A DNA stretch of 64,000 bases from an uncultured virus (IMG/VR IMGVR_UViG_3300031134_000596) (taxonomy: Duplodnaviria > Heunggongvirae > Uroviricota > Caudoviricetes): the IMG/VR virus record IMGVR_UViG_3300031134_000596; one strand, written 5' to 3'. Below the pieces are notes generated by a model. It was given only the letters and a program-made list of their open reading frames with translations. It was not told the origin of the DNA and made no database searches. Numbering within the stretch: the first letter of the stretch is position 1; each line of letters opens with the position of its first letter. Position numbers and translations under genes: made by a program. Below are positions 2,233-55,469 of this stretch, in pieces.

Positions 2233-3048
2233 CTACTTTGCAAACATTTTTGCTGGTATTGTGTTGTTTGGCCAGCGGACATAAAAACCAGTCTGGGATA
2301 GGAACTGTCTGGCTGGTTCATTGAACTTCGCTTCCCATTCAGAGTTGGTAGGAAAACGCTCTTTAGTCAACCAATCAACAGATAAAGCTGACCTGTAGCA
2401 GTAGTTGTACTCATACCCTGTATCCAAGTAGAACTTCACCAACCTGTTGCGATGAGATAACGCATTCGCATGCTTCGCTTCAGCACGGTCTGAATTTTCT
2501 GGGATGGTTCCATCTCCTACGTTGGTAGGTACTCCAGATAAGAATTTGCCGTTCTCATCTGCATGCTTCATCAGAATACTCCGCAAATGACGCCCAATTC
2601 CGTAACTTCTCAAATCAGCATCGACTTTGATGTCTACAGTTACTGAGGTGTATCCATTCAGCGTGTCCTCATACAGTTGATAACGTAGGCCTTCAGGGTA
2701 TGTTGCATAAGCGTAGGCTTCTATGTCTTCAACGTTATCAAAAGAAGGTATGACGGTTTTGTCTACCGCTTGTACTTGCTCAACTAAATCTGGGCGAGTC
2801 AAAGGAACATGGACAAGAGCTCTTCCGCCAGTGACAGCATCTTTCAGCCTCAAAGCTGCAAAACCATCCTGCTCCATAAGCATGACAGCTTCAGGGTTGC
2901 TCATCTCTTTGGCTTTTAGGTAAGTGCTAATGTCTTGATCTTTCAGGGCTTTATCCATCGCATGTTTGATAGATAGTCCTTCAGGACAGCGAGGATCACC
3001 GCATCCACCCATCTGATGCTTTTTGGATCGGCATTTTTGTATTCCCAT
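2233..3048 (-). CDS. Cys-tag protein with GNAT acetyltransferase-like domain
   Basis: N-term KCRSKK..CGDPRCPEG; GNAT motif-A-like VDADLRSYGIGRHL and LVKFYLDTGY. Confidence 0.65.
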   Translation of the reverse strand: MGIQKCRSKKHQMGGCGDPRCPEGLSIKHAMDKALKDQDISTYLKAKEMSNPEAVMLMEQDGFAALRLKDAVTGGRALVHVPLTRPDLVEQVQAVDKTVIPSFDNVEDIEAYAYATYPEGLRYQLYEDTLNGYTSVTVDIKVDADLRSYGIGRHLRSILMKHADENGKFLSGVPTNVGDGTIPENSDRAEAKHANALSHRNRLVKFYLDTGYEYNYCYRSALSVDWLTKERFPTNSEWEAKFNEPARQFLSQTGFYVRWPNNTIPAKMFAK

Positions 3049-3121
3049 GCAATGTATCTAACAGATCAAGAAAGAGAAAAAGGAGAAGCTTCGAAACAAG
3101 CTTCTCCTTTTTCTCAGGGTT

Positions 3122-3436
3122 TTACCTCGAAATGGTCTGCAGCATCAGTACGGTCTCTTTCTGCCTACGCATGATTTCGTGAGCTGTGTGAGCAACAGCC
3201 TGACGATTGTTCACCTGAATGGTTCCCATGTTGGTAACCATATCAACTGAGTAATGGACATCTACGTAGCACTTGTTATCAGGACCAATCTCGTCTGAGA
3301 CAGGTACGAAGCTGGGGTCAAGAATGACCTGAATCAAGCCAAGCGGGATGTTGGGCGTAGTCCAGTCAGAGTGACGAAGTTCGCAAGACAGAGTGACTGA
3401 ACTACCATCAGGGTAAGAGTAAGTGTTCTTGTACAT
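3122..3436 (-). CDS. hypothetical protein
   Basis: AGGAGG SD, 104 aa. Confidence 0.7.
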   Translation of the reverse strand: MYKNTYSYPDGSSVTLSCELRHSDWTTPNIPLGLIQVILDPSFVPVSDEIGPDNKCYVDVHYSVDMVTNMGTIQVNNRQAVAHTAHEIMRRQKETVLMLQTISR

Positions 3437-3576
3437 TATGCCTCCTGGGGTCTGTAGGTACTGATGCTAACGAGGATCAACCTATCAGGGTTAGTAGCCC
3501 AATGCAAGTTCTAGTCATAGTCCGTTTCCTGGTTTCTATGAGTAATTGCAGTAAGTCAGAAAAACAAACAAAATCA

Positions 3577-3873
3577 TTATGACTTAGCAGAGTTCCCTTG
3601 TGGCTGACGTATAGCTGGAATTGGTAGGGTAGGGTTCCATGTAGAAGGATCATGAGTGTAGATGATTCTTACATCAGGAAAAGAAGCTAAGTCTTTAGCG
3701 TTGAATTCCCCTGGAACGAAAGCACTAACAAAATCGCGGAAGTAGTTGTCTTCAGCTGCACGCACAACTAAGTGTTCCAAAGCAGGTAACAGTTCTGGAT
3801 CGTCAACATCAGCAGGAACGCTGAATCCAACAATACTTCCAGTGGGTAATGCCAATAGTTCTTCAACAGTCAT
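3577..3873 (-). CDS. hypothetical protein
   Basis: AAGGAG SD, 98 aa. Confidence 0.7.
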   Translation of the reverse strand: MTVEELLALPTGSIVGFSVPADVDDPELLPALEHLVVRAAEDNYFRDFVSAFVPGEFNAKDLASFPDVRIIYTHDPSTWNPTLPIPAIRQPQGNSAKS

Positions 3874-4006
3874 GAGGACTCCTTTTTAGGTGGGTTACTA
3901 CTGTACCATTTTAGCCCTTGTCGACTCAAAATGGGAGTTATATTATATAGATAACTCGCCTCTCATCAGGAAAAATATTTTTGTAAACTAATTTTGGGGA
4001 TCAGAG

Positions 4007-4035
4007 TTGACAACCAGATTTTGGAGGAGTATAGT
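4007..4035 (+). promoter_or_regulatory. sigma-70/sigma-A type promoter
   Basis: TTGACA-N17-TATAGT. Confidence 0.85.
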
Positions 4036-4054
4036 CTCACTTGTAAGAAACCAA

Positions 4055-4090
4055 CGGGGTTACTTGAACGCCCGACAAAACAACAAGAAA
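4055..4090 (+). promoter_or_regulatory. conserved 5' leader hairpin, copy 1
   Basis: CGGG-GTT-ACTTG-AAC-G-CCCG then AAAACAACAAGAAA; repeated at 30506 and 30911. Confidence 0.75.
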
Positions 4091-4100
4091 TGAAAATCTA

Positions 4101-4658: not shown

Positions 4659-5390
4659 CTAGGAGAGTTTATATGAACGAGGAACGGCAACATTCCAACC
4701 GCTGGCAATTTCAACATAACCAGCAGCATTCAAAAGCTTGGTCATTCCAGGAATGTGTCCAGCTCCCCACACAAGAGTGACTGGCTTGGTCTCTTTCAAA
4801 GCTGCCTCGATGGCAATCTCGTTCCGGTAATCAAGAATCGCCGGGTCCGTATTCAGAGCAGCAGGACTGAAAGTTTTGAAGAACTTCTGAATGATTTGAA
4901 CCCAACCCATGTTCTTAATAACCCAGACCATGACCTTGCCTACTTCAGATTCAGACTCTTTTAACTCTTCAAACTTGTCGACTGCTTCTGACATGTTTTT
5001 CAGAGATTCAACCGTCATTCGCCTAGCGACAGAAAGAACATCCGCGTCGATGTTTTTAGCGTTCAGGCCTTCGATTTTCAAGCCAGCTTTCTGGAAAGTC
5101 AACTTAGTAACTTCAGCCATCTTCAGAGAAATTGAAGCCATGCTCTTCAGGCTTTCAACCTTCTCACTCTCCTCCTCTGACAAAGGACCAACAAATCCTT
5201 TGACTCCTTCGAGGTGGAGAACTCCCTCTTTCGAAGCCTGGTTCATGAAATCTTGCAAGTTAGCCCAAAAGCTGTCATGAGCAAGATGCATAACACCAGC
5301 AATATTAATGACATGCTGAGTGGCAGGGTTCTGGAACCGTACTGTCTTCACTTCCAAACCTGCGAAGGTGGAACGAACAGATGAAGGCAT
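4659..5390 (-). CDS. TraB/GumN-like protein
   Basis: GVMHLA..LEGV..RNEIAI..VWGAGHIPGM motif pattern. Confidence 0.55.
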   Translation of the reverse strand: MPSSVRSTFAGLEVKTVRFQNPATQHVINIAGVMHLAHDSFWANLQDFMNQASKEGVLHLEGVKGFVGPLSEEESEKVESLKSMASISLKMAEVTKLTFQKAGLKIEGLNAKNIDADVLSVARRMTVESLKNMSEAVDKFEELKESESEVGKVMVWVIKNMGWVQIIQKFFKTFSPAALNTDPAILDYRNEIAIEAALKETKPVTLVWGAGHIPGMTKLLNAAGYVEIASGWNVAVPRSYKLS

Positions 5391-5486
5391 TGATGACCTA
5401 ACTTTTAGAGTAGTGATGTTGAGAACATTCTACCAACAAATAGGGGGTACGTCAAACCTGGTTCGACGTACCCCTTGCCTCATTTG

Positions 5487-5927
5487 TTAGTAGATTCTAA
5501 TCGATACACCACTCATGAGGTCTTGACCAGTGTATTTTTCAGGACACTCTGCTTTGGATTCGAGGAAGAAATCCCCAAATCTTCCTTGGTCTGAACTATC
5601 ACGTTCACGGAAGTAAAAGTCATCACTGGATCGGAATGTTACCTCAGTTCCTTCAAGTAATTCAAGGTCTTCCAAAAGCCAATCATCGTTGCATCCATCT
5701 GCATAGGAGTAAGTATCGACAAGCCATTTTTTCAGATAAGCCAGAGCTGTTTGCTCATCCGAAGTTCCTTCAACATACCAATAACCGCCATCTTCACCAA
5801 ACTCCTCGGCAGTCAGCTTAGGAGTTGGCTCTCCTTTAGCGACATGCTGTAAAGCTACAATGTAAGATTCGCCAGTTTCAGCTGCCCGAGCTCGAACAGT
5901 TTTCTTTAGGGAGTTGTTCTTCGTCAT
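5487..5927 (-). CDS. hypothetical protein with N-terminal RxRxAxTGE motif
   Basis: MTKNNSLKKTVRARAAETGESYIVA; same N-terminal motif as 31646..32710. Confidence 0.7.
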   Translation of the reverse strand: MTKNNSLKKTVRARAAETGESYIVALQHVAKGEPTPKLTAEEFGEDGGYWYVEGTSDEQTALAYLKKWLVDTYSYADGCNDDWLLEDLELLEGTEVTFRSSDDFYFRERDSSDQGRFGDFFLESKAECPEKYTGQDLMSGVSIRIY

Positions 5928-5944
5928 AATTTTCTCATTCAATC

Positions 5945-6081
5945 CTGCAAACACCCCACGCCTGCTCACATATGTCTATGAGGAAACGGAACGAACAGGA
6001 TTCACAGGGAACCTTCCTTCTCATTAACGTCAGCTACGTGGGAGCTTTGACGTTTCAAAGATGGGCTGCTGTTACAGCCAT
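5945..6081 (-). ncRNA. candidate structured pseudoknotted 5'-leader RNA, copy A
   Basis: shares sequence blocks and covarying stems with 31505..31630; TATTAT -10 at 6088-6093. Confidence 0.65.
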
Positions 6082-6123
6082 GAGAAAATAATACCATGAG
6101 GTGGAACAGCGGGTGAGAAAACG

Positions 6124-6561
6124 TTACCTGTTCAGTTTGAGGTGGAATGTAGAGGATGGAAGAATTTCTTTCAGGTCTTCTCTTACATAGAGGTTGTTGT
6201 TGTATCTCCATGTGTCTAAAGTTTCATGAACTGCGACCTGCCAATTTCCTTGAACGTCTTGCCACATGTAGTGTTCATCCACTGCTATGTTTTTACCGGT
6301 CTGAATGATTTCGATTTTCCAGTCATCATGTTCGTACAGTGTAACTCGGGACCCGTCTTCAAGCTTGAGGTCTAACACCGGACCAAAATTGTTGGTGGTG
6401 TAGACCCTTGAGACGGTTCCTGTAAGTTCTGGGATTCGGGCGTCTTCTTCATCCCAGGGTAGATCGATGTCAGGAAGGTAGAGGTCTTTGTTGTATTCAG
6501 GATTAAACATGCGAACATTGTCGTTTTCCCGAAGGGCAGAGAAATAGTGGTGAATAGTCAT
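6124..6561 (-). CDS. hypothetical protein
   Basis: GGAG SD before MTIHHYF. Confidence 0.65.
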   Translation of the reverse strand: MTIHHYFSALRENDNVRMFNPEYNKDLYLPDIDLPWDEEDARIPELTGTVSRVYTTNNFGPVLDLKLEDGSRVTLYEHDDWKIEIIQTGKNIAVDEHYMWQDVQGNWQVAVHETLDTWRYNNNLYVREDLKEILPSSTFHLKLNR

Positions 6562-6750
6562 AGTAGAAGCTCCAATTAGTAGATGATGAGGAAAGTAGGT
6601 ATACACATCTCATCTTTGGAGGAGCTCTGGAACTGATCTACAAGAAAATATTCATGTGTAAACCATATCATGAAAGTATTTCTAAAGTCAACAAAAGATA
6701 GTTGATCTACCACTTAGTGGCACCTGGCTTACAACTGTTAGAAATCTCAC

Positions 6751-7518
6751 ATGATGAAAAGTTTTTTCAAAAGTAGAGCCATCCGATCAGAAATACGCAA
6801 ATGTCGTTCAGTTGATCCTTCACAGTGTCGATACCATAGTCTTTACACTGGTCTGGCTGCTGCCGTGGAAGAAAAGGATATGAGCCGCTACTTAGACCTG
6901 AAAACAGCAATCTCAGAAGCAAATCGTGAAGCAGAACTGAAAGGGTTTATTGACGAGTCCAGCATCAGTTCAGAACCCGAATCAGCAATAGGCAAAAATG
7001 AAGAAGCTGAAAAATTGCTTGCAATTGGTGACTTCTTGACTGATGACAAGGGAATCATCCAGGTGTACAGCAAAGACACTATAAGTTTTGAAAAAGATTA
7101 CAGCGCCATGTATACTTTTGGAGAGTTTACTGACTTGGAAACGGCTAAACAACTTCATCAAGATGACCTCTACAAGAAACTCCAAAATGGTGACTGTGCT
7201 GACTTAGCTCATGAGTTGTACAATAACAACCCACATGTTGTGAACATCTCAGAAGTCAATATTGGAGAAAGAATGCCAGGTATGGAAGAAGATGAATCCA
7301 TTCATGTCATTGCTTTACTCAAAGACGGTAACTATGTGGACAGCCTTGGAATCTGGAGCAAAGAAACGATGGAAGCCGCTTGGAAGCAAATCGACCCTAC
7401 ATCCCGTGTTACAGATTTCCCTTCCTTTGAAAAGAAAAAACCTTCACCAAATAACCTCCATCCCATCAACAATACAATTCGCAGAATGACGGATGCTTAT
7501 TTCGAGAACAAGCAATAA
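6751..7518 (+). CDS. Cys-tag protein with papain/transglutaminase-like C-H-D domain
   Basis: N-term KCRSVDPSQCRYHS; C-term GDCADLAHEL...HVIALLKDGNYVDSLG. Confidence 0.6.
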   Translation: MMKSFFKSRAIRSEIRKCRSVDPSQCRYHSLYTGLAAAVEEKDMSRYLDLKTAISEANREAELKGFIDESSISSEPESAIGKNEEAEKLLAIGDFLTDDKGIIQVYSKDTISFEKDYSAMYTFGEFTDLETAKQLHQDDLYKKLQNGDCADLAHELYNNNPHVVNISEVNIGERMPGMEEDESIHVIALLKDGNYVDSLGIWSKETMEAAWKQIDPTSRVTDFPSFEKKKPSPNNLHPINNTIRRMTDAYFENKQ

Positions 7519-7543
7519 GTTCACCAGCGATGCACGTAACTAC

Positions 7544-7597
7544 AACAAATAGGTAATGCCCAAGCTTTGTGTATAGCTTGGGCATTACCTATTTGTT
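7544..7597. terminator. bidirectional intrinsic terminator
   Basis: 23-bp inverted repeat between convergent genes. Confidence 0.8.
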
Positions 7598-7781
7598 ATT
7601 TATTGTACAGTCTCTGTTCTCTTCGAGCTTTCATCCGAAGAAGAATCAGCCCTTGCGGAGGAGCAATGAACTTATGGCTTATACCAAGTTCACTTACCCA
7701 CAGTCCGCTGGCTCCATGTGACCAGCTTTCACCACACACAGCACATGAGTTAGGGTCAGGGATAACGATGTCCTTCGACAT
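7596..7781 (-). CDS. small Zn-binding hypothetical protein
   Basis: CAVC..H...H motif; GGAAAG SD. Confidence 0.55.
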   Translation of the reverse strand: MSKDIVIPDPNSCAVCGESWSHGASGLWVSELGISHKFIAPPQGLILLRMKARREQRLYNK

Positions 7782-7975
7782 GTTTTCATCTTTCCGCACC
7801 AGTCAACAGTTTAGGATTAACCAATTCAATCCTACGTGACAAAAGATAATTTACCACAGAGTTGTAGCAGTAGTCAACAAATATCTAGGGTTTTCGTCAA
7901 AATGACTAAAAATGAACCGATACTTAGAAATGAGTTACAATTAGACTATCAACAAACGATGAAAGGAACACTATC

Positions 7976-8980
7976 ATGGGATACGGAACCTACTCAACAA
8001 GAGCTTACGCAGCCACAACAGGAGCAAAGATTGCTTCTGGTTCAACCTTCGGATACGACCGCACAGCTCGTTCAACCGGACGCTACGAAGCCCACGATTC
8101 ACTTGACCCTAAGAAACTGAACGCTGAAGGCAAGAACCTCCGCGAATCTCGTGATGGTGCAGACCACCCTAATGCTGTACCTATCGTAGTCGGATTCGAC
8201 AGCACAGGCTCAATGGCTAACACTCCCCGAATCGTGCAGGAGAAACTTGCCAACCTGTTCGGTCTTCTCCTCCGTAAAGGCTACGTAGAAGACCCACAGA
8301 TTTCCATTGCCACATACGGTGATGCATACTGTGACCGTGTGCCACTCCAGATTTCACAGTTCGAGTCAGACAACAAGATTGACGACAACCTCGACAACCT
8401 TCTTCTCGAAGGTGGCGGTGGTGGAAACGGTGGCGAGACCGCAACCCTTCTCTGGTACTACCTCAACAACCATGTGGCTACTGACGCTTGGGACAAGCGT
8501 GGCAAGAAAGGCTACCTGTTCTTGATTGCTGACGAAGTTGCCCTGGATTTGCGTCCTGACCAGATTACCAAATTCGTTGGTGCCACAGAAGCCCCTGCAG
8601 CTTCTGAACTGACAGCTGAGAAGCTTGCTTCGAAGTTGCAGGAGAAGTGGGAAGTGTTTGTTCTCCTCCTCGACAACCTTAGTGCTCACAGCCAGGGTTC
8701 GAAGAAGTTCTACGAGAACCTCTTCGGAGCCAAGAACCTCATCATCCTTGAAAACGATGAAACAGTCAGTGAGACCATCGGTGCTGTTCTGGGTCGCATG
8801 GAGAATGATGACTTGGATGATGACGAACTCATCGATGACCTTGTTTCTGAGGGTGCTACTAAAGCTATTGCAGAGAAGACTGCAACTGCTGTCGCTCGTC
8901 TTGGTAACGCTCCTCGCGGGTCTGTTGCGAAGACTAACGTTCGCGTAGACACTTCCGACACAGGTGTTGAGTTCCTGTAA
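7976..8980 (+). CDS. vWA (MIDAS) domain protein
   Basis: FDSTGSM MIDAS, EGGGGGNGGE, FLIADE; AAAGGA SD. Confidence 0.85.
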   Translation: MGYGTYSTRAYAATTGAKIASGSTFGYDRTARSTGRYEAHDSLDPKKLNAEGKNLRESRDGADHPNAVPIVVGFDSTGSMANTPRIVQEKLANLFGLLLRKGYVEDPQISIATYGDAYCDRVPLQISQFESDNKIDDNLDNLLLEGGGGGNGGETATLLWYYLNNHVATDAWDKRGKKGYLFLIADEVALDLRPDQITKFVGATEAPAASELTAEKLASKLQEKWEVFVLLLDNLSAHSQGSKKFYENLFGAKNLIILENDETVSETIGAVLGRMENDDLDDDELIDDLVSEGATKAIAEKTATAVARLGNAPRGSVAKTNVRVDTSDTGVEFL

Positions 8981-11499: not shown

Positions 11500-11823
11500 T
11501 TACTTGCTCAGCTTCCTAAGAATGCTGGTGTTCAGCTCATCCCAGGGGGTTTCCCCTGTTCCCAGGTTTGCCTTCATGATGATGTCAGCACCGGTGGTTG
11601 CTGTCAAAGAATGAGTGTAAGCAATTTCACGTAACTGCCTCTTGAGCTTGTTACGAGTGACAGCGTTACCTGTCTTCTTTGTGATGATGAAACCGTAACG
11701 TGTTACGTCATCGTCACGCTTGCGGATAAAAATGGTTACGGCAGGAGTGTGTACACGCTTGCCCTTACGCATGGTGAGCGTGAAATCCTGCGGAGCCGTG
11801 ATTCGGTTCTTCTTGGGTAACAT
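11500..11823 (-). CDS. rnpA: ribonuclease P protein component
   Basis: MLPKKNRI..DF, RYGFIITKKTGNAVTRNKLKRQLRE (RNR-motif region); AAGGAGGT SD. Confidence 0.92.
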   Translation of the reverse strand: MLPKKNRITAPQDFTLTMRKGKRVHTPAVTIFIRKRDDDVTRYGFIITKKTGNAVTRNKLKRQLREIAYTHSLTATTGADIIMKANLGTGETPWDELNTSILRKLSK

Positions 11824-13496: not shown

Positions 13497-14786
13497 ATGA
13501 GGAAAGATGATATTGTCACAGGACTATTCTTAGGTGACGAAGGAAAAGGGACCGCTGTCGACTACCTTGCACACCTGAACCGACCAGTTTCTGTTGTTCG
13601 AACAGGTGGCCCGCAAGCTGCTCACAATGTTGTTAACCCTGACGGGACTCACCACACCTTTGCCCAGTTCGGCTCTGCTTCATTGCAGGAAGTTCCCACT
13701 ATCCTGTCCAAGTACATGCTTGTCAATCCTTTCAACCTGGTCACAGAAGGCGACCTTTTGTATTCGAAAACTGGAGGATGGAATCCTTTCAGTGACCTTC
13801 TCATCAGCGATAACTCTCTCCTCATCACGCCCCTCCATATTTTCCTGAACAAGAAAAGAGAAGATGCCCGAGGTAGCACTGCTCATGGTTCCACAGGTGA
13901 AGGCATCGGAGAAACACGGCTGTTCCACATTCGCCATCCTGAGTATGCCCCAGTCATGGGTGATTTGCAGCTTGGGAACTTGGACCGCCTGAAAACAAAG
14001 CTGCAGGTTTTGTACGAATACGTTGAAGAGGAATGTTCCAGCATCTGGGACGAAGGAACTGTCGACTCGCTTCATCAGGAATACGTGAACTTAGCGACAG
14101 ATGAATTTCTCAACATCGTAGATGACGAGAAAATATCTGAACGCATCCGAGAGGGTTATACTATCTTCGAATGCTCACAAGGCGTTCTCCTGGACGAATC
14201 CTTAGGTTTCCACCCACATACCACCTGGACTGGTTCAACGTCTCAGAACGCCCAGCAGCTGCTATCAGACGCGAATAAGCCTGCCGGTACAGTCGTTGGA
14301 GTAACAAGGACGTACGCCACAAGACATGGTAATGGTCCTTTGCCCTCTGAACTCCCTAACACGGATGCAAACATTTCCAGAATGCCTGAAGACCACAACG
14401 CGTACGGTCATTACCAAGGAGGTTGGCGTCGAGGACACCTTGACCTGCCCTTGCTTGAGTATGCAGTTCGCGCTAACAAAAAAGTAGACTTACTGTTCCT
14501 CACTCATTGTGATTTGGTCACTAAGGACTTCCAAGTAGTGACTAACTACAAGGACTGGAAAGACATTCCTTCAACGTTTTACGACCGTGATAGAGTCAAA
14601 CAAGAAGAGGTCACCTCCCATCTCATGGCTTTGTCCTTAGATGATGCCGAATTGACACAAGTTGAGTCTTTGGAAGAGTTGGAAGAACTTCTCGAACAGA
14701 AACTTGAAGTCCCAGTTGGTTACCGTTCGTTCGGTAAAACTTACGATGATAAGACTGTTGTTCAGGTAGGTTTTCAGCCTTCTTGA
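13497..14786 (+). CDS. purA: divergent adenylosuccinate synthetase-like protein
   Basis: GLFLGDEGKG, GGPQAAHNV, HGSTGEGIGET, FECSQGVLLD, TRTYATRHGNGPLPSE, RRGHLDL. Confidence 0.8.
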   Translation: MRKDDIVTGLFLGDEGKGTAVDYLAHLNRPVSVVRTGGPQAAHNVVNPDGTHHTFAQFGSASLQEVPTILSKYMLVNPFNLVTEGDLLYSKTGGWNPFSDLLISDNSLLITPLHIFLNKKREDARGSTAHGSTGEGIGETRLFHIRHPEYAPVMGDLQLGNLDRLKTKLQVLYEYVEEECSSIWDEGTVDSLHQEYVNLATDEFLNIVDDEKISERIREGYTIFECSQGVLLDESLGFHPHTTWTGSTSQNAQQLLSDANKPAGTVVGVTRTYATRHGNGPLPSELPNTDANISRMPEDHNAYGHYQGGWRRGHLDLPLLEYAVRANKKVDLLFLTHCDLVTKDFQVVTNYKDWKDIPSTFYDRDRVKQEEVTSHLMALSLDDAELTQVESLEELEELLEQKLEVPVGYRSFGKTYDDKTVVQVGFQPS

Positions 14787-14833: not shown

Positions 14834-14850
14834 TTGTTAGAAATACTGTT

Positions 14851-15759
14851 ATGACAAGAATGAGATATCCAAGAGTTGCTGTAGGTAACGGCAGCTACTG
14901 TTACGCAGGACCTAATTGTAAGCTGCATGGTAAGGCTGCTAATATAAAAGCCGAATCATCTGATCTATCTACTGAAAGTTCACCAGTACAAGCAGATGAA
15001 TGGTCACGTCAAGATTTTGCTTCGAAGCTGGAAACCTGCAACAAAGCCTATGACAAAGCAGTCAAAGCTTCCAAGTTTGTGGAAAATCTTTCCGATTTGA
15101 AAGGTAACGCCCTTATGAAGGGGTACCTTGCAAGAGAATCAGACGACGGCACTGGCTACCATGTGTACAAAGCTGACGCTTCTTTGTTGGCGACTGGAAC
15201 AAAAGTTCTGTACCAGGAAATTGCGTCTGCCGCAGCTGACGGCGTGTTGGCTCCTAAGAAAGCTAACGACCTCAGGAAAGAGCTGTCTGAGTATTCCAAT
15301 CAAGTGTTAAGACCCCAAGCTTTTGAGGATAAAAAGCTGATGGAGAAACTCCAGAGTCGTTACATCAAAGAAGGTGCCAACCAAGGAGCGATTCATAACC
15401 GCCAGCAACAGCTTGCCTCTGCTCGTATTCGTCAAGGATTGCCTGCAGTCTTAGATAAAGACACAGTTACTCCAGCTTTGTACCCAGTGACTGAGCTCAG
15501 CAACAAACAATTATTGGAATACTACCAGTGTGGTAGGAAGAAATCTTTCAACTCTGAACAAGAAGCCCAGTATTCCATCTCAGTTGTCGGTGACCCTTCT
15601 TTGCAGTCATACAAATGCTCTCATTGCGACAAAACACATACTGGTCATGGCGGCGGCCAGAACTCTGAAGAAGAACAACTGCTCAGTGCTGCACGGCATT
15701 GGGAGAAGTTCCCCGAAAAGTCCAACCTGTTCGCTTTTGCTAAAGGTCTCATCAATTAG
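14851..15759 (+). CDS. Cys-tag protein with C-terminal Zn-binding domain (paralog 1)
   Basis: N-term YCYAGPNCKLHG; C-term CGRKKSF..YKCSHCDKTHTGHG..NLFAFAKG. Confidence 0.8.
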   Translation: MTRMRYPRVAVGNGSYCYAGPNCKLHGKAANIKAESSDLSTESSPVQADEWSRQDFASKLETCNKAYDKAVKASKFVENLSDLKGNALMKGYLARESDDGTGYHVYKADASLLATGTKVLYQEIASAAADGVLAPKKANDLRKELSEYSNQVLRPQAFEDKKLMEKLQSRYIKEGANQGAIHNRQQQLASARIRQGLPAVLDKDTVTPALYPVTELSNKQLLEYYQCGRKKSFNSEQEAQYSISVVGDPSLQSYKCSHCDKTHTGHGGGQNSEEEQLLSAARHWEKFPEKSNLFAFAKGLIN

Positions 15760-15778
15760 GAACTGTTAGAAATAGTTC

Positions 15779-16633
15779 ATGACAAGAACTCGCTATCCAC
15801 GTGTACCAGTAGGTAATGATAGCTACTGCTATGCAGGACCTACGTGCAAAATCCATTCTGCTTCCTCCGCTGGCTACCATATCCGGAAAATGGATGAAGC
15901 TAACGCAGAAAGTGTCAAAACTTTTCAGCGTTTGGTCAAAGAAGAAGGGCAGTTTGTTCCTGCTTTAGAAGACTTAGGTGATGAAGCTCTTTTGCGTGGA
16001 AGAGCTGCCTACTATTCAGAAAAAGATAAAGGCTTCTACGTATACAACTCATCCGACATCAATGTTGCTGTTGTAGAGATAGTCAAAAAGCCGTTGAAAG
16101 ATTTCAACCAAGCTGTAGTAGATGGTGTTTTCCCTAAAGACCAGGCTCAGGATACAAGGAACAAGCTTCTCGCAATCTCAAAAATTCCTGGTTACAAAAG
16201 TCTACAAACTGAAAACCGAAAGACATTGACTGACTTCCAAAACGGTTTCGATGCTTCTGAAGCTGCCATTGAGAAAAGAAACAAACAACGAGAATTAGCT
16301 CGTAGTCTTTCTATCATACAGCCAAAAGTAGTTTATGACAGACCCGTTATGGTTCCTGAGAGTAAAATCGATGATGCAACCATGTTGGAATACTGGAGAT
16401 GTGGTCGCAAAACAAAATTTGAGGATGCTACTGCTGGTACTAAAATGATTCAAGAACTCAACGAGACTGAAACTATGAGTACTTACATGTGTGACTACTG
16501 TCCTAAAGTTCACATTGGTCATGGTTTTGGTAAAGGTCCTGAAGATGAAGCTTTAGTCAAAGCTCGTGCTCATTGGACAGAGAATGCAGAAAAAGCCAAC
16601 CTTTTCGCTTTCGCTAAAGGTTGGCTTAACTAA
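15779..16633 (+). CDS. Cys-tag protein with C-terminal Zn-binding domain (paralog 2)
   Basis: N-term YCYAGPTCKIHS; C-term CGRKTKF..YMCDYCPKVHIGHG..NLFAFAKG. Confidence 0.8.
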   Translation: MTRTRYPRVPVGNDSYCYAGPTCKIHSASSAGYHIRKMDEANAESVKTFQRLVKEEGQFVPALEDLGDEALLRGRAAYYSEKDKGFYVYNSSDINVAVVEIVKKPLKDFNQAVVDGVFPKDQAQDTRNKLLAISKIPGYKSLQTENRKTLTDFQNGFDASEAAIEKRNKQRELARSLSIIQPKVVYDRPVMVPESKIDDATMLEYWRCGRKTKFEDATAGTKMIQELNETETMSTYMCDYCPKVHIGHGFGKGPEDEALVKARAHWTENAEKANLFAFAKGWLN

Positions 16634-18079: not shown

Positions 18080-18451
18080 ATGAAGAAAATCCTTATTATC
18101 AGTGCTGCTGGTCTTGTTGTCGTAGGTATTATCGTTGCGATTTTTGTGATGTTCAAAATAGAGCATGACAAGATTATGGCAGAAGGCGTTGACACCCAGA
18201 GTGTCTCTGCTGTAGTCGAATCCAGGAGAGAATCACACAGTACAGGCACAGGTAACACTCGTCGTACCACATACGATACCGTCTACTATGTTGAGTATTC
18301 CTATGAAGCTAACGGTAGAGGATACGAAATTTCTAGCCAGAAATTCCAGACAAAAAGTTCAGCTGAAGCTCGTAAAGCTGAAGGTGCAGTGACCATCCGC
18401 TATCTGGAAGAGAACCCTGATAGAGCTATCCTTTTTGACGCCAAGAAGTAA
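18080..18451 (+). CDS. DUF3592-like membrane-anchored protein
   Basis: N-term TM, YYVEYSY, VTIRYLEENP. Confidence 0.7.
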   Translation: MKKILIISAAGLVVVGIIVAIFVMFKIEHDKIMAEGVDTQSVSAVVESRRESHSTGTGNTRRTTYDTVYYVEYSYEANGRGYEISSQKFQTKSSAEARKAEGAVTIRYLEENPDRAILFDAKK

Positions 18452-30505: not shown

Positions 30506-30543
30506 CGGGGTTACTTGAACGCCCGCTCTAAAACAACAAGAAA
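30506..30543 (+). promoter_or_regulatory. conserved 5' leader hairpin, copy 2
   Basis: CGGGGTTACTTGAACGCCCG plus AAAACAACAAGAAA. Confidence 0.75.
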
Positions 30544-30554
30544 GAATAGAAACC

Positions 30555-30910: not shown

Positions 30911-30949
30911 GCAGGGTTACTTGAACGCCTGCTATAAAACAACAAGAAA
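30911..30949 (+). promoter_or_regulatory. conserved 5' leader hairpin, copy 3
   Basis: GCAGG-GTTACTTGAACG-CCTGC (compensatory stem) plus AAAACAACAAGAAA. Confidence 0.75.
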
Positions 30950-30960
30950 GAACTACAACC

Positions 30961-42645: not shown

Positions 42646-43197
42646 TCACAGATCATAAGCAACAAGCTTGCCTGTTCTGTCATAACCAACTTGAGCACTG
42701 TCCACATAGCCTACTCAGTCAGGAAGTTCAGAGTACTTCGCTGAAGTTGGTCGAACTTTCTCCATGACAAGAACATCTACTCCGTCAATTTTGTCCCAAC
42801 TGTTAGTTGCAACTGGAATAAAAGGGTCCTCTTCTTGACCTGCACGGTATTCGTAACCGTTTGCAAGTTCACCTTCGTCAGTGAAAGGGACTTTGAGTAC
42901 GTTACCGTCTTTCATGTCAAACACTGCACGGGTCCGACCAATTTTTGGTGTCCCGTATGTGTCAACCATCTTCTTCATCAGGGCACGAACTTTTGTGGTG
43001 TAGTCTCCCCAATCACATCTGCTGAGGTTGTCTTCAATGTATGCTAAGCGAAGTTCACGAGTCTTCTGCTTCTGCTCCTGTTCTTCCCGTACCCGCAAAT
43101 ATTTGTCAGCGTCAGAAGTAACAGTGTTTGAAGATGGTGTTCCATGAGTGCGGCAGCGAGCAGGTTCTTTGGCCCGGCATCTCACTTTGGTTGTCAT
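42646..43197 (-). pseudogene. Cys-tag protein with minimal kinase-like domain, interrupted by in-frame TGA
   Basis: RCRAKEPARCRTHG; IGRTRAVF..VLKVP..VMEKV; TGA at 42715-42717 then VGYVDSAQVGYDRTGKLVAYDL to TGA 42646-42648. Confidence 0.6.
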
Positions 43198-43206
43198 GTG
43201 CTATTA

Positions 43207-43638
43207 CTAACGGTTTTGCTCAGCCCAGGTCGAAAGGGTCCCTTCGCAGACTGCCACAGCATGGTCGCCGCTGGCTGTGTTGTGGATGATGATGTCTTGG
43301 TAGCTGATTTGACATTCAGCTTCACCGTTAGTGGATAGTGATTCGACTGTCATTTTCACTTTGCCGCCGTAAGTACCGCCAGTTGTTTTGGTCCATGGAA
43401 CCAGAGTGTCTGTTCCCGGTTCACCTATCTGGTCTGTTGAGGTTGGAGCAATAGTCACTTTAACATCATCAGCACCGTCACCTGTTGTTCCGTCAGCTCG
43501 GTAGATTAGACCTTGGACTGTTTCGCTATTCTGGTAAATCTCTTGACCTGGTTTGGATTCCCCTGCACAGCCGGCTAAGAAAACTGTGGCCATCAATGGA
43601 ATTGACACAATCATTGTGCGTTTAAAAAAGTTCTGCAT
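43207..43638 (-). CDS. lipoprotein, MmpS-like C-terminal domain
   Basis: LAGC lipobox; PW..T...ECQI.......VAVC. Confidence 0.65.
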   Translation of the reverse strand: MQNFFKRTMIVSIPLMATVFLAGCAGESKPGQEIYQNSETVQGLIYRADGTTGDGADDVKVTIAPTSTDQIGEPGTDTLVPWTKTTGGTYGGKVKMTVESLSTNGEAECQISYQDIIIHNTASGDHAVAVCEGTLSTWAEQNR

Positions 43639-47183: not shown

Positions 47184-47193
47184 TGACCAGGAG

Positions 47194-50398: not shown

Positions 50399-50576
50399 AC
50401 TGTGACCCTACACCTACATTTGAAAAGAGTCAATGCCTCTGTAAGCGATTCTAAGAGGGCAGAGGCTTACTACTCACACGTAGACCATAAGACGATCAGC
50501 TACAGGGAGAACGGCTCACAGGAGGGTTTAGAGGCAATTCAGAGCTGTTCAACGGATGGCTGGTATTATCAGAGTT

Positions 50577-51059
50577 ATGACTGTGTACACATCTCCTGAA
50601 GTTCTTCCAGAGCATCTCGAACTGCCTATCTTTTTAGCCGGCGGGATTAGTAACTGTCCTGACTGGCAAGCAGAACTAATTTCTCAGTTAGATGGTCCTA
50701 CCATCACGCTTATCAATCCTCGTAGAAAAAAATATGAAGACAGCGAAGACATTGCCCGTGCACAGATCAAATGGGAGTATGACGCTTTCAAGCAAGTCGA
50801 AAACGACCCTGTAGTTGACAGGGTGAGCAACTGGGGTTCTGTACTGTTTTGGTTCCCTGAAGAGACTCTTTGCCCTATCACTTTGCTTGAACTCGGCAAA
50901 CTCACACAGCAACGAACACCTATTTTTGTGGGTGTCCATCCAAACTATGCCCGCAGGCTTGATGTTGAAGTACAGCTGGAGCTTTCTCGCCCTGAAGTAA
51001 CTGTTGTTTACTCCTTGGAGGACCTCGCCCAGCAAATCAAAGACCATTACGTCCTATAA
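50577..51059 (+). CDS. nucleoside 2-deoxyribosyltransferase-like protein (Nuc_deoxyri_tr2 type)
   Basis: IFLAGGISNCPDWQ, NPRR, QIKWE, CPITLLELG. Confidence 0.85.
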   Translation: MTVYTSPEVLPEHLELPIFLAGGISNCPDWQAELISQLDGPTITLINPRRKKYEDSEDIARAQIKWEYDAFKQVENDPVVDRVSNWGSVLFWFPEETLCPITLLELGKLTQQRTPIFVGVHPNYARRLDVEVQLELSRPEVTVVYSLEDLAQQIKDHYVL

Positions 51060-51074
51060 CCGAAAGAAGAGACC

Positions 51075-51485
51075 ATGTTCAGCGACGGACAGAAACTCCA
51101 GATCAATGGAGACCGAAAAAGTATGCTTTTCAAAGCAATTGAGTTTGCTTTGGACTATGCGGACTTCAAAGTAGTCAGCTACAAAGTAGAGGGAGATAAA
51201 ATTACCTTCTACTGGCACGCAGTAGAAGGTTCCTACCCTCTACCTCCTACAAAGAACTTTGAAACAATCAGCAACATGGCGTGGGACCATCTTCAGTCAG
51301 AGGAGGCTCAAGCTGCTGGTGACAAAAAAGATGATATCGATGGTAGCATCAGCAAAGGCTGGGAGATTTTCATCCCTCAGTCCTACATCTACCAGGAAAC
51401 AGAGCATAACAAAACATACAAAGACCCTCAGGCTTTTTACGCGATCTTCGCAGTGAAATTTGCTTGGATGTACTACGGCAAGTAG
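51075..51485 (+). CDS. hypothetical phage-like protein
   Basis: DIDGSISKGW, AWMYYGK terminus. Confidence 0.7.
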   Translation: MFSDGQKLQINGDRKSMLFKAIEFALDYADFKVVSYKVEGDKITFYWHAVEGSYPLPPTKNFETISNMAWDHLQSEEAQAAGDKKDDIDGSISKGWEIFIPQSYIYQETEHNKTYKDPQAFYAIFAVKFAWMYYGK

Positions 51486-51538
51486 CACCAAAAACAAAGA
51501 AGCAGGAAAGGAATTTTACCCTTTCCTGCTTCTTTGTT

Positions 51539-51997
51539 TTAACGAGTCAGTTCGACACCATAGTACACTCTACGCAGTGTCCACTTTTCTCTCTTATCTA
51601 TCGCCATATACCTTTGAGCCTCTTCCGCAGACGGGAAGAAGAACACGTTTGTTAGTTCAATGTCTCTACCAAACTGTCTACCAATTGTGTGAACAATCCA
51701 AGCTTCAGTACCGGTAGTTTCAGTCACTGGAAATCCAGGAGCCACATACCGAACGTTCTTATGGTCATTCATTTCCCATCCGTGGCGCAGCATCCGCCCA
51801 AAAGGAAGAAAGCTAACTTTTACCCCAACGTTACGAGTATCAGATGCAACAAAATTAGTTGCTGCTTCCTGGGTGAGAAACACTCGCAGTAACGAAGCGT
51901 TGAAGTCGTTGTCCCTTACTCCTGTACGCATTCCTTCATAGAAGGCTACCCAGACACCAAGAGTATTGTTGAATCCTGTTGGAAAAACTGTGTTCAT
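51539..51997 (-). CDS. hypothetical protein
   Basis: AAGGGAG SD. Confidence 0.65.
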   Translation of the reverse strand: MNTVFPTGFNNTLGVWVAFYEGMRTGVRDNDFNASLLRVFLTQEAATNFVASDTRNVGVKVSFLPFGRMLRHGWEMNDHKNVRYVAPGFPVTETTGTEAWIVHTIGRQFGRDIELTNVFFFPSAEEAQRYMAIDKREKWTLRRVYYGVELTR

Positions 51998-52055
51998 GAT
52001 AATGCTCCCTTTTCGGAACTATATCAGGCTTTTTCCTTGTATGCAAACCCTTGCT

Positions 52056-52580
52056 TTAGCGGGTGATACGGACCACTTCACATCGGCTGACTTTTGGTTC
52101 ACCATATAGAGTGTTCAATTTTGTCAATGTGCTTTCCTGAAGAGGGGCAAAAGAGTCAACAATGATGTGTGTTGTTGATAGCTGGGCTCCAGGGACTCCT
52201 GCTTCAACTAATTCTTGAATGACGAACATAGGGTCTTTGTTCGCAGCAGAGAACCTGTACCTGAGATGAGTTTCATTTCCTGGTTTGTACACAACTCGTA
52301 CAGCATCTTGATTGAAGAGTTCACGCAAAGCAGCTGCAACTTTTTCTATGTCCTTGCGACTACCTGAAATTTTTGTTGTCACTGACGGTTCATGTGAGCC
52401 TTCCCAAATACCAATTGTTTTGTGGAGAACATTCGACTGGATGTTGTTGCTTGAAACCAGTTTGTTGTAAGTATCAACAAAGGTACTGTACTTGAAGGAA
52501 GAGTAAAAGGGGTCGTCAAAAGAAGGTTTGACACTCACATCTGTATCAGTGAACGGGGTAAGACTGTAGTAAGCTTTCAT
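52056..52580 (-). CDS. hypothetical protein
   Basis: IGIWEGSHEPS..FNQDAV; ATGA overlap with upstream gene. Confidence 0.65.
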   Translation of the reverse strand: MKAYYSLTPFTDTDVSVKPSFDDPFYSSFKYSTFVDTYNKLVSSNNIQSNVLHKTIGIWEGSHEPSVTTKISGSRKDIEKVAAALRELFNQDAVRVVYKPGNETHLRYRFSAANKDPMFVIQELVEAGVPGAQLSTTHIIVDSFAPLQESTLTKLNTLYGEPKVSRCEVVRITR

Positions 52581-53257
52581 GACCAATCAGTAATAATCAT
52601 CGGACGTAAACGTTTCCATGAGTCAACATTCACGAAAAGTTCTAACCATTCGCAAACGTTGACTACATCTGTAGGAACATTCGGAACCTTGCGGGAAATC
52701 GCTTGCTCAATGGACTCATATCCGCTTTCAGCAGCAGCTCTGCGAGAGTAGTCATTGTCCAGGTTGAACCTCAAAGCGTCCATAATCTCTTTGGAAAGAA
52801 CTTGACCAGTTTCAGAGTCCATGTAAGACCCTGAATAAGGGAACTGGCCGTACTTCAAAAGACGGTAACTGTTCTCACCCATAAGTTCATCATCAATATC
52901 TTCAGCTTCAGCATAATCGATGGCGTCATCTGAGTGCTTCCATTCATTGATAACGATAAATGGAGTCACAACTACTGCAGTTTTGCCATCTGGCATGTCT
53001 GCAATGGTTACAAAGTCTCGGCTGGTGATTTTGTTGAAACTACCGTTGATGTCATTCTGCAACCAACTGATGTCGTTACCTGGAAGGTCAAGCCCTTCTT
53101 TCTCAGTAGGGTTAGCTTCTTTCCTTTCCAAGAACTCCAAGTATTCAGACATGGACAAGTTCTTGCGACCTTTGTGGTTAGTGTTGATTACAGAATCATA
53201 CTCTTCTTCTGTGAGGACAAAACCGTACCCCATCACCTTGTGAATCCTGATCCCCAT
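52577..53257 (-). CDS. hypothetical phage-like protein
   Basis: MGIRIHKVMGYG..LRPMIITDWS; GGAG SD. Confidence 0.7.
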   Translation of the reverse strand: MGIRIHKVMGYGFVLTEEEYDSVINTNHKGRKNLSMSEYLEFLERKEANPTEKEGLDLPGNDISWLQNDINGSFNKITSRDFVTIADMPDGKTAVVVTPFIVINEWKHSDDAIDYAEAEDIDDELMGENSYRLLKYGQFPYSGSYMDSETGQVLSKEIMDALRFNLDNDYSRRAAAESGYESIEQAISRKVPNVPTDVVNVCEWLELFVNVDSWKRLRPMIITDWS

Positions 53258-53348
53258 GTTTACTCCAGTAGAAATTGCGGCTGTTAAAATGTCTCAGTTG
53301 TGAGACACTTCGTAGGAGGTGTCTCACAACTGAGATGTGGAAGGAAAA

Positions 53349-53825
53349 TTATTCCAAATTCTCCAGGTCGTACCCTTCGTACTCACCATCGGCACGGTAG
53401 TCGATGACAGCCAGGGCAAGAGGAGCAGGGTTGCGCTGCTTGAAACCTTCAGCGTCATCAGTAGTGAACTGATGGGCGTCTTCAGGGGCAACGCTGACGA
53501 CCTTCTCCAACGCTGCAAACCATGCGTCTTCGTTCTTCTTCTCACGCTCCCAAACAGCACGACGCTTCTGAATAGCAGCCCGCTTCTTCTTTGTTTCACT
53601 CAAGAAAGGCTCAGGCAAAGCTTCAACCTGTGCGTCAGTGAAAGCAGCAAGCTTCTGCTCTTCACTGTTCAAAGGAAACTCACCGTCGTATTCACGGTGG
53701 TACCAGTAACCTTCTTCGACTCTCTGCTTCAGAATCACAGCACATGCTCGTGCCAGCTTCTGGTTGTCAGAAGCATCAAAATACCGCTCACCATACTTTT
53801 CTCGGAAGATGATAACGCGTCCCAT
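53349..53825 (-). CDS. hypothetical phage-like protein
   Basis: EKYGERYFDAS..YRADGEYEG; AAGGA SD. Confidence 0.7.
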   Translation of the reverse strand: MGRVIIFREKYGERYFDASDNQKLARACAVILKQRVEEGYWYHREYDGEFPLNSEEQKLAAFTDAQVEALPEPFLSETKKKRAAIQKRRAVWEREKKNEDAWFAALEKVVSVAPEDAHQFTTDDAEGFKQRNPAPLALAVIDYRADGEYEGYDLENLE

Positions 53826-53920
53826 ATTAGAGTCCTTTGTGTAGAAAATATACTTACGATTAGTGCCATTCTACCACTCTTTCCTTGCTGTTTCAAGCCA
53901 TAACTGGTAGAATAACAACT

Positions 53921-54298
53921 ATGAGTACAGAGTACAGTGGGTATGTCGGATATGGTTTCTATGTCAACTATTCAGCTGACTCTTTCAACATACTAAAAGA
54001 GTTCTATGAGGAAATCACTGGCAATGAATATCTTCTGAACAAAGACCCTGACTGGGCTCACTGGTATGTTGAAGCTCTTGATTTTGGTTTACCTGTCCAA
54101 GTCAGTGTCGAAAAAGATGGAGAAAATCGAATCATCTTAGTGCTGGCGGATAAGCATTCCTGGTTTGATACTACTTTGGTAGGTGCCAGACACGTCAGGA
54201 CGCCAGATGCAGAAAACCCTTCCAGGAAACTGGTGGATGACCTTGCTAAGAAAATGGATGTCGAAGCCGGCATCATCATGTACGCAACATACGAATGA
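53921..54298 (+). CDS. hypothetical protein (paralog of next gene)
   Basis: leaderless TAGAAT-N7-ATG; YSGYVGYGF. Confidence 0.7.
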   Translation: MSTEYSGYVGYGFYVNYSADSFNILKEFYEEITGNEYLLNKDPDWAHWYVEALDFGLPVQVSVEKDGENRIILVLADKHSWFDTTLVGARHVRTPDAENPSRKLVDDLAKKMDVEAGIIMYATYE

Positions 54299-54310
54299 GA
54301 AGAGAAAATA

Positions 54311-54691
54311 ATGGGATTAGATTACAGCGGTAGCGTTGGTTTTGGATTTGTTTCACCTTACAACAAAGAGGTGTTTGAGATTCTCAAAAGCTTCTACGAA
54401 AAGAAGACCAGCGAAACATACGAACCTGAGGACGAGTATGACGGCATGGACCAGAACATCTCTCATCGCATGTTCCCTGGTGTGATGGTTCAGACTGTCT
54501 GGTTTGAAAGCACTGGTAACCGTCAGATTTTTGTCATGTACGACAAAACTCGTGTTTCCTTGGAACGAACAGACATGGAAGGACGCTACATCACGATTCC
54601 CGAAAACAACTCAGCTATCGACATCATCGAAGAACTTGCTGACTTGCTTGGAGTGGACACAGGAATGGTAATCTACTCCGAATATTCGTGA
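54311..54691 (+). CDS. hypothetical protein (paralog of previous gene)
   Basis: YSGSVGFGF, similar C-terminus. Confidence 0.7.
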   Translation: MGLDYSGSVGFGFVSPYNKEVFEILKSFYEKKTSETYEPEDEYDGMDQNISHRMFPGVMVQTVWFESTGNRQIFVMYDKTRVSLERTDMEGRYITIPENNSAIDIIEELADLLGVDTGMVIYSEYS

Positions 54692-54692
54692 G

Positions 54693-55469
54693 TTAACGGC
54701 TTTCCACTAAAGTAACTATTGTGGCATGAGCAGAGCTTCTTCTTGCTGTTTTAGAAGGGTTGCTTATTCTGCGATGCGGGAGTACTTGCTCCACGACAAA
54801 CTCTTTGTCTCGTGGGTGCAGGTACTCCTGTTCTTTTTCACTGAAAGTCTGTCCGTAGTTTGACACTGGAGCTCCAGGACGGGTCTTCATAACGAAGACA
54901 AGGTTACCTAAACCTCTGTCTGGTTCATCCGCAAGGTATTCTTCCCAGTCAGCTTGTGTTGGGAACGTAGATGTGCCAATAGGTGGCTGCAAGTCTGCAT
55001 GGGACTCTGGAAGGAAGTCGAAAAGAGCGTCAGGGTTTGGTGTGGTTGAGGTGAACCCAGCAAGTTTTACTCGACCTTTGACAGGGAACTGCTGCTTTAC
55101 CCATGCTTCAGCTTCTTCTTTGTTTCGGAAATCTTGGTAGCATTTTGTGGCACGGTAAGTGATGACTGTTTCTGCTGGAGCAATCTCTTCGTATTTTTTC
55201 AACGCACTGTCAAGCTGTTTGATTCGCTCAAGAGTATCTGCAGAAGGAGTCAAATCCGCACCATGCAGGTGGGCGTTCATTTCCATGTAGCTCTGGTCCA
55301 AATAATCTGTAACTGCTGCTACTTCGTATTTGTTGAGGAACAGCTTCAGCTTTTCCGATTCCCGAGTATGGGTGTTGTAGTCGAGGCTGGTTGAGGTGAA
55401 AACGTACTCGCCAGTCTCACCATGCACACGGCAAGCGGAGGGGTTCTTTGCTCGGCATTTTCTTTTCAT
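54693..55469 (-). CDS. Cys-tag protein with ADP-ribosyltransferase (VIP2/Alt-like, R-S-E) domain
   Basis: KCRAKNPSACRVHG; Y..MN..L, YRA, FTSTT, EQEYL. Confidence 0.8.
   Translation of the reverse strand: MKRKCRAKNPSACRVHGETGEYVFTSTSLDYNTHTRESEKLKLFLNKYEVAAVTDYLDQSYMEMNAHLHGADLTPSADTLERIKQLDSALKKYEEIAPAETVITYRATKCYQDFRNKEEAEAWVKQQFPVKGRVKLAGFTSTTPNPDALFDFLPESHADLQPPIGTSTFPTQADWEEYLADEPDRGLGNLVFVMKTRPGAPVSNYGQTFSEKEQEYLHPRDKEFVVEQVLPHRRISNPSKTARRSSAHATIVTLVESR

Follow-up and report, generated by a model that had tools for sequence, protein, structure and literature searches.

A short Cys/His peptide at the start of diverse enzyme-like proteins of an uncultured phage-like element, a candidate address or junction for head cargo

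The stretch of DNA analysed here (the window, 64,000 nucleotides) belongs to an uncultured virus (IMG/VR record IMGVR_UViG_3300031134_000596), and our subject is a short Cys/His peptide, hereafter the tag, that lies near the start of several of its open reading frames (ORFs). An earlier note on this DNA had grouped six scattered ORFs into one family on the basis of such N-terminal peptides. All six peptides are present in the translations where that note had put them. As to the family, three of the ORFs are members and a fourth carries a homologous variant, whereas the remaining two (P0005 and P0006) are look-alikes. The six ORFs are listed below, with the consensus form of the tag designated class I and the variant class III.

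54693..55469, minus strand: P0004, 258 aa; class I tag at residues 5-17 (nt 55419-55457), then an ADP-ribosyltransferase (ART) domain
42715..43197, minus strand: P0003, 160 aa; class I tag at residues 7-19 (nt 43141-43179)
6751..7518, plus strand: P0002, 255 aa; divergent class I tag CRSVDPSQCRYHS at residues 18-30 (nt 6802-6840), then a helix
2233..3048, minus strand: P0001, 271 aa; class III variant tag KCRSKKHQMGGCGDPRCPEG (nt 2977-3033), a helix and a GNAT-fold domain
14851..15759, plus strand: P0005, 302 aa; look-alike motif YCYAGPNCKLHG (nt 14899-14931) and a C-terminal Cys/His domain
15779..16633, plus strand: P0006, 284 aa; YCYAGPTCKIHS (nt 15827-15859), tandem paralog of P0005

The strict pattern C.{3,4}P.{1,2}C[RK].H[GS] has five matches in the six-frame translation of the window, all located 7-28 residues past the stop codon that precedes a long ORF, compared with a mean of 0.01 matches in 100 shuffles of the window. 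In the three main tags of the window identical residues are written with differing codons, which points to selection at the level of the peptide and not to a DNA repeat. Word searches with the six N-termini as queries led to two outside proteins, P0014 and P0018, that have the same peptide on different bodies, and a profile of the main form was built from these two and the three window fragments. That such a profile would find further members had been anticipated in the earlier note: against 1.84 billion representative proteins it has 67 matches at E≤1e-3, among them 66 additional carriers. The spacing C-x4-P-x2-C-x2-H is present in 66 of the 67, the exception being a repeat protein (P0057), and the tag lies inside the first 18 residues in 63 of the matches.

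These 66 matches, together with P0002, P0003, P0004 and P0014, make up the 70 carriers considered below. Their consensus (class I) is [KR]-C-R-A-K-[ND]-P-[SA]-x-C-R-[VYT]-H-G, a basic peptide with conserved Arg, Lys and Arg, in which (i) the two cysteines, the proline and the histidine are invariant in 70/70 tags; (ii) the glycine is present in 69/70 and (iii) the dipeptide [ND]-P is present in 66/70, with Glu in place of Asn or Asp in the other four, P0003 included. The residue preceding the first cysteine is Lys or Arg in 51 carriers and Glu in four, one of which is the internal tag of P0024. The tag starts at residues 4-18 in 67 carriers; the exceptions are P0027 (residue 40, with a nearer Met seven residues upstream), P0071 (residue 84) and P0024 (residue 412). 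In about 20 carriers the first cysteine is followed, 27-38 residues on, by a helix motif, D-h-x-x-Y-L-x-x-R-E. No Pfam or PHROG family was found to match the tag, nucleic-acid-binding families included. These results show the tag to be real and specific.

Membership of the six ORFs was assessed with an independent profile, made from the 66 non-window members and scanned over all six frames of the window. P0004 (39.3 bits), P0003 (35.3 bits) and P0002 (23.8 bits) stand clear of the next best window match at 8.6 bits, and P0001 (3.0 bits) and P0005 (-1.4 bits) fall below it. The C-terminal domain of P0002, behind its divergent tag, is common to P0078, which has a canonical tag, the two falling into one BLASTP cluster. 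For P0001, an hhalign comparison of this protein and three relatives with 18 tag-plus-helix N-termini gives a probability of 96% and an E-value of 4e-9 over 42 columns; the same alignment confirms the helix that had been described as common to the ORFs starting at 3048 and 6751. Judged by this alignment, the P0001 tag is a homologous variant, with a seven-residue insert that adds a histidine and a cysteine and with the R-x-H element missing. Its class III form, K-K-C-x-S-x-[KR]-H-x3-4-G-C-x-[DN]-P-x-C-P-E-G, is found in 25 of 27 aligned P0001 homologs, and 24 of those 25 have the histidine.

P0005 and P0006 are tandem paralogs with 35% identity. Their motif, R-Y-P-R-V-x-V-G-x-G-x-Y-C-Y-A-G-P-x-C-K-x-H-[GS], is present in five full-length proteins among six aligned family members and was seen in this family only; it aligns with the tag over CKLHG alone, with an hhalign probability of 30%. 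By sequence comparison these two proteins appear to be look-alikes rather than demonstrable members. The Zn-binding domain proposed for them has weak matches only (RYYR-CCHC, E 0.093, and phrog_14788, E 3e-4).

All six ORFs, look-alikes included, are preceded by a common DNA element in which GTTAG lies 14 or 15 nt before the ATG, mostly as TGTTAG[AG]AAT:

6737..6745, plus strand: GTTAGAAAT, 14 nt before the P0002 ATG
14836..14844, plus strand: GTTAGAAAT, 15 nt before the P0005 ATG
15765..15773, plus strand: GTTAGAAAT, 14 nt before the P0006 ATG
55475..55483, minus strand: GTTAGGAAT, 14 nt before the P0004 ATG
43203..43211, minus strand: GTTAGTAAT, 14 nt before the P0003 ATG
3054..3062, minus strand: GTTAGATAC, 14 nt before the P0001 ATG

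GTTAG occurs at this spacing in 11 of 92 window genes, all six flagged ORFs among them (hypergeometric P 6.5e-7), and TGTTAGDAAT has four matches in the window where 0.31 are expected. Reading the six leaders by eye reveals no AGGAGG-type Shine-Dalgarno motif, and three of them have inverted repeats ahead of the element. The position of the element, -14 to -6 from the ATG, would fit an extended -10-like promoter giving rise to a leaderless mRNA. Elsewhere, the element is located 14 nt before the ATG of tagged genes at seven loci (L125, L132, L145, L149, L127, L128 and L129) and 17 nt before it at two (L134 and L144); L138 and L142 have variants, and it is absent upstream of the tagged gene of L148. 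Independently of the peptide, the element ties the six ORFs into one putative expression class. Five further genes of the window belong to the GTTAG class and have no Cys tag (18080-18451, 18503-19402, 28391-28918, 55538-56287 and 57080-57478). They encode a DUF3592 protein, a HAD_SAK_2 phosphatase-like protein and three proteins without assignment, and may be co-regulated with the tagged genes. A second upstream element, AAAACAACAAGAAA(G/T), is found at 4075-4100, 30529-30554 and 30935-30960, directly ahead of the plus-strand genes starting at 4101, 30555 and 30961, which suggests another expression class.

What follows the tag differs from carrier to carrier. BLASTP comparisons bear out the claim that the C-terminal parts of the flagged ORFs are unrelated to one another, and when the post-tag sequences of 99 tagged proteins are clustered by BLASTP at E≤1e-5, 57 clusters result, which supports the view of the tag as a portable module borne by a polymorphic set of enzyme-like proteins. 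Pfam names only a minority of these sequences: 55 of 67 tag-bearing proteins scanned have no Pfam match at E≤0.01. Domains that can be named behind the tag include ART (P0040, P0042, L125, L138 and P0004), GGACT (P0041), HD (P0059), RNase_T (P0080), DUF3263 (P0069), NUDIX (L134) and a DnaJ-type zinc finger (L128).

For the window proteins themselves, the predicted ART of P0004 is well supported by Pfam (PF03496, 42.4 bits versus a cut-off of 23.4, E 6e-11). The ART motifs YRAT, FTSTT and EQEY can be read in its translation, its structure neighbours in the Atlas are ARTs (template modelling score, TM, 0.57-0.67), and several of the ART clusters near it in the Atlas are fused to Phage_Mu_F or minor-capsid domains. 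P0001 has no Pfam match, but structure comparison of its AlphaFold2 (AF2) model, which has a mean predicted local distance difference test (pLDDT) score of 82, supports the GNAT-like fold proposed for its C-terminal part, at about residues 90-266. All 50 listed rows of a VIA structure search are acetyltransferases or of GNAT type, with middling Z-scores of 5.0-7.0; the best is the anti-CRISPR acetyltransferase AcrVA5 (6iuf_B, Z 7.0, root-mean-square deviation 3.1, 93 aligned residues), and the best Foldseek row is NatD (E 8e-3). The sequence RSYGIG in P0001 fits the acetyl-CoA motif R/Q-x-x-G-x-G/A. PDB sequence searches of P0001, P0002 and P0011, a relative of P0003, returned no meaningful match.

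The two other enzyme labels given in the earlier note were not verified, 'papain-like' for P0002 by Pfam, PHROG or the PDB sequence search and 'kinase-like' for P0003 by Pfam, PHROG or the PDB sequence search of P0011. For P0002 the Atlas rows score at most 0.87 and are leads only, one of them being a papain-fold toxin family (0.86). In P0003 the tag is followed by the helix D-K-Y-L-R-V-R-E and then by a domain without family match. P0003 also stops at an in-frame TGA (42715-42717, minus strand) at a position where the 183-aa P0011 has Trp, and the 22 codons past it still encode the C-terminus of P0011; judged from the translation, the TGA is a nonsense variant or a read-through site.

The tag is not confined to protein starts. 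A position-blind DNA pattern, TGYMGNGCNAARRAYCCN7TGYMGN4CAYGG (a stricter, 17-base pattern), identifies 32 loci, on two viral contigs, three species-representative genomes and 27 metagenome contigs, in which the tag is N-terminal in 15 cases and internal to a long protein in 16, the remaining locus (L140) being a chance match. An earlier, CG-rich 14-base pattern gave at least 117 loci in viral contigs, all of them GC-rich off-frame chance matches, and was dropped. The internal tags fall into two groups. Eight loci (L120, at 4840-8376, and L121, L124, L126, L137, L141, L146 and L150) encode one family of acidic, low-complexity proteins of 1178-1429 residues without family match, in which the tag lies at about residue 387. 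Of these loci, one comes from a contig of 251,769 bases and another from a metagenome-assembled genome contig labelled Fibrobacter; the neighbours of the 1178-aa tagged protein (L120, L121) have no informative PHROG match. The second group consists of portal proteins in which the tag comes just after a PF06381 or PF06074 portal domain:

L119 and L147: PF06381 portal, tag at 517, open 3' end after the tag
L135: PF06381 portal, tag at 257 of a 5'-open ORF, no domain identified after the tag
P0024: PF06381 portal, tag at 412, MuF-like domain (phrog_324) after the tag
L123: PF06074 portal, tag at 526, PBECR1 after the tag
L130 and L133: PF06074 portal, tag at 545, LPD3 after the tag (seen in L130)
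L136: PF06074 portal, tag at 483, no domain identified after the tag

Because the portal gene directly follows the large terminase gene in L119, L123 and L136, these are real portal genes of those phages. Low-complexity linkers border the tag, and the residue before its first cysteine is Glu in five of the eight internal-tag families. Portal or MuF domains were found by Pfam and PHROG in none of the six window ORFs, only in tag-bearing proteins elsewhere.

The replicon to which the window belongs appears to be large. A 10-kb locus (L143) of a 788,683-base metagenome contig is 94-98% identical to window positions 50420-60177. This contig was seen as three 10-kb pieces (L143, L125 and L134), and the other two contain the free-standing tagged ART and NUDIX genes of L125 and L134. 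In the protein database, window proteins are assigned to contigs as long as 782,330 bases, and homologs are found on contigs of 725,246, about 880,000 and 1,000,729 bases. Structural genes that would confirm the phage identity of these 0.7-1 Mb contigs were not seen; if they are phage genomes they would, to our knowledge, exceed the largest published ones. We infer that the replicon holding the window is a phage-like element of about 0.78 Mb, the word phage being taken from its gene content. No cultured phage matched a 10-kb part of the window in megablast, and a search of viral contigs for related loci gave one weak locus with P0004 and none with P0005. DNA nearly identical to window positions 52000-58000 is present in sequencing runs labelled phyllosphere, straw and plant metagenomes, with at least half of the sampled words found in six runs.

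Two known themes bear on what the tag might do. In phage T4 a capsid targeting sequence (CTS) directs diverse internal proteins into the scaffolding core (PMC3012670). The CTS of IPI-III and Alt is, like the tag, a short N-terminal peptide common to otherwise unrelated, fast-evolving, host-directed proteins; here, the tag starts no later than residue 18 in 67/70 carriers and heads 57 unrelated clusters among the 99 tagged proteins, and one tagged cargo class is an Alt-like ART (phrog_802). Unlike the CTS, the tag is Cys/His-rich and near-invariant and occurs also internally at portal-cargo joints. The two peptides are not known to resemble each other in sequence.

The second theme is that of polyvalent effectors (Iyer et al. 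2017, PMC5512222): portal and MuF proteins bear fused PBECR1, LPD3, MuF-like, NUDIX and ART domains, for which packaging in the head and subsequent injection are predicted. The internal tags described above lie in exactly such portal- or MuF-fused proteins, and the tagged proteins have a similar repertoire (ART, GNAT fold, NUDIX, PBECR1 and LPD3). The window proteins, in contrast, stand alone: each has a single domain, they are encoded at dispersed positions and none is joined to a head protein. MuF polymorphic toxins reportedly represent a related theme of MuF-fused effectors. A link between the tag and the virion is indirectly supported, because the same tag stands between portal and effector domains in other phage contigs and because the domains that occur as cargo are of types already described in fusions with portal or MuF proteins, the portal-NUDIX fusion of phage FP_Brigit among them.

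Since the tag is located exactly at the start of the cargo, both in portal fusions and in free-standing proteins, the most economical reading is that it would serve as a head-cargo address and/or a processing junction akin to the T4 CTS, a proposal we hold tentatively, at somewhat under an even chance. In this model the 13-residue peptide would be a portable 'cargo-start' module for the head cargo of tailed phages. In phages of ordinary size it lies in the disordered joint between the portal and an enzyme fused to the portal C-terminus, and in huge phage-like genomes, that of the window included, the same peptide opens many free-standing enzyme genes, among them those for ART, NUDIX and GNAT proteins. 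Recognition of the tag in the assembling prohead may be by the portal, the core or the maturation protease. Loading of the tagged enzymes into the head, their release by cutting at the tag, or both would follow, and the enzymes would later reach the host along with the DNA, in the manner of T4 internal proteins and Alt.

The Cys-Cys-His set may also hold a metal ion, and from the residues themselves metal binding by the tag is plausible. The retroviral nucleocapsid CCHC knuckle and ribosomal protein bL36 are short zinc knuckles with which the tag has in common a short Cys/His spacing, a Pro-containing turn and basic residues. It differs from them in that class I has three invariant ligands only, no family match and a low-confidence predicted structure. 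A more specific version of the model is a metal-dependent capsid-address system, in which a residue of the portal or of the prohead core would complete the metal site of a Cys-Cys-His knuckle, so that dozens of interchangeable effectors would dock within the heads of phages of 0.7-1 Mb. The point at which portal-fused cargo is released would be marked by this knuckle too, and the peptide would then be a general, transplantable signal for loading phage heads and a marker by which injected effectors could be catalogued from sequence. We consider this version rather doubtful.

A number of observations weigh against the head-cargo model. A targeting signal would be redundant in a portal fusion, so that the tag may serve for release or have a role only once the cargo is injected. 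The neighbours of the free-standing tagged genes are nucleotide-metabolism and accessory genes rather than head genes, and if the GTTAG class represents early genes, packaging of their products would be unlikely. On the structural side, the candidate ligands of class I (C, C and H in 70/70) lack a conserved fourth, and AF2 predicts no compact fold for the tag: in residues 1-60 of P0003 (21 aligned sequences) the tag has a pLDDT of 64-70 and is followed by one long helix at 26-59, and in P0001 the tag (residues 1-24) has a pLDDT below 50 and is followed by two short helices. Because the window is without structural genes (none among the Pfam and PHROG matches of its ORFs), the phage label of the replicon is read from gene content alone. 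Searches of cultured phages by tblastn with P0004, a 27-residue tag stretch, P0020 and P0042 gave no match, which leaves the absence of the tag from them unproven because a 13-residue match sits near the detection limit of tblastn. None of the listed sequencing runs matching window positions 52000-58000 is RNA-labelled.

Some of these points would be accommodated by a different role, in which the tag is a small metal knuckle that binds nucleic acid or a host target after delivery or expression, for example tethering the enzymes to DNA, RNA polymerase or another host structure, with portal fusion as one way of delivery and no relation to head loading. Its basic character (conserved Arg, Lys and Arg) together with the Cys/Cys/His set fits such a role, as do the four candidate ligands (C, H, C and C) of class III in 24 of 25 tag-bearing homologs, the scattering of tagged genes among early-type metabolic genes and the redundancy of targeting in covalent portal fusions. 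A knuckle of this kind is disfavored by the location of the tag in disordered linkers exactly at the cargo boundary, by the missing fourth ligand of class I, by the absence of a compact fold in AF2 and by the lack of a link to any nucleic-acid-binding family; we regard it as unlikely. The position at portal-cargo joints is equally what would be expected of a proteolytic or self-cleaving junction that only frees cargo from the portal and has no address function. Cleavage might be by the prohead protease after the preceding Glu, which is found in five of eight internal-tag families, or at the [ND]-Pro bond present in 66/70 tags; autocleavage at NPTH is known in FlhB/YscU. Cutting would, however, remove almost nothing from the 67/70 carriers in which the tag starts 4-18 residues from the N-terminus, most N-terminal tags are preceded by Lys or Arg and not Glu, and Glu replaces Asn or Asp in four of 70 tags, including that of P0003. 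A pure cleavage function is decidedly improbable on these grounds.

It is also conceivable that the likeness of the six ORFs is partly coincidental, with a common promoter or leader being what matters and the peptide a lineage-specific N-terminal cap without common function. P0005 and P0006 would suit this explanation, being undetected by the tag profile and having a motif confined to one family, as would the five additional GTTAG-class genes without any Cys motif. We consider it very unlikely in view of the invariant C, P, C and H in 66 independent carriers and of the occurrence of the tag on 57 unrelated sequence clusters, in phages that differ greatly in size and portal family.

Returning to the head-cargo model, the motif itself appears to be new in the literature covered. 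The strings CRAKNP, CRAKDP, RAKNPS and RAKDPS have no match in the literature searched, the words 'cysteine' and 'knuckle' have no occurrence in the main-text passages covered of the polyvalent-protein paper PMC5512222, and the passages covered of a jumbo-phage survey make no mention of a cysteine motif or knuckle. The portal-NUDIX fusion of the cultured phage FP_Brigit is without the tag. That head cargo is tagged by a previously undescribed, sharply conserved Cys/His motif is a possibility to which we give slightly less than an even prospect. If the tag does mark head cargo, a 13-residue pattern would reveal from sequence the injected effector arsenal of uncultured huge phages, would connect the delivery of effectors by covalent fusion to the portal with their delivery as free tagged proteins, and would provide a compact loading signal with which phage heads could be engineered. 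Even if packaging proves to be the wrong reading, the motif is strongly conserved and, in a lineage with contigs of up to 0.7-1.0 Mb, goes together with a specific DNA element upstream.

The remainder of the window, which has a G+C content of 44-48%, contains about 92 non-overlapping ORFs on both strands and no tRNA gene was found in it. The majority of the ORFs have no Pfam or PHROG match. Those that do are of kinds typical of the accessory regions of large phages: a DenV-type glycosylase, a phage-type adenylosuccinate synthetase, NUDIX, RNA ligase, DNA methylase, an HNH endonuclease, nucleoside deoxyribosyltransferase-like proteins and an RCC1-repeat protein. The adenylosuccinate synthetase homolog (13497-14786, plus strand) has '2-aminooxy adenylosuccinate synthetase' as its best PHROG match (E 4e-66) and is 40% identical to mycobacteriophage PurA-like genes. 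At 11500-11823 on the minus strand lies a gene for an RNase P protein component of bacterial type (PF00825, E 1.5e-22), and the RCC1-repeat protein (PF25390, E 7e-112), at 60044-62671 on the same strand, is 875 aa long.

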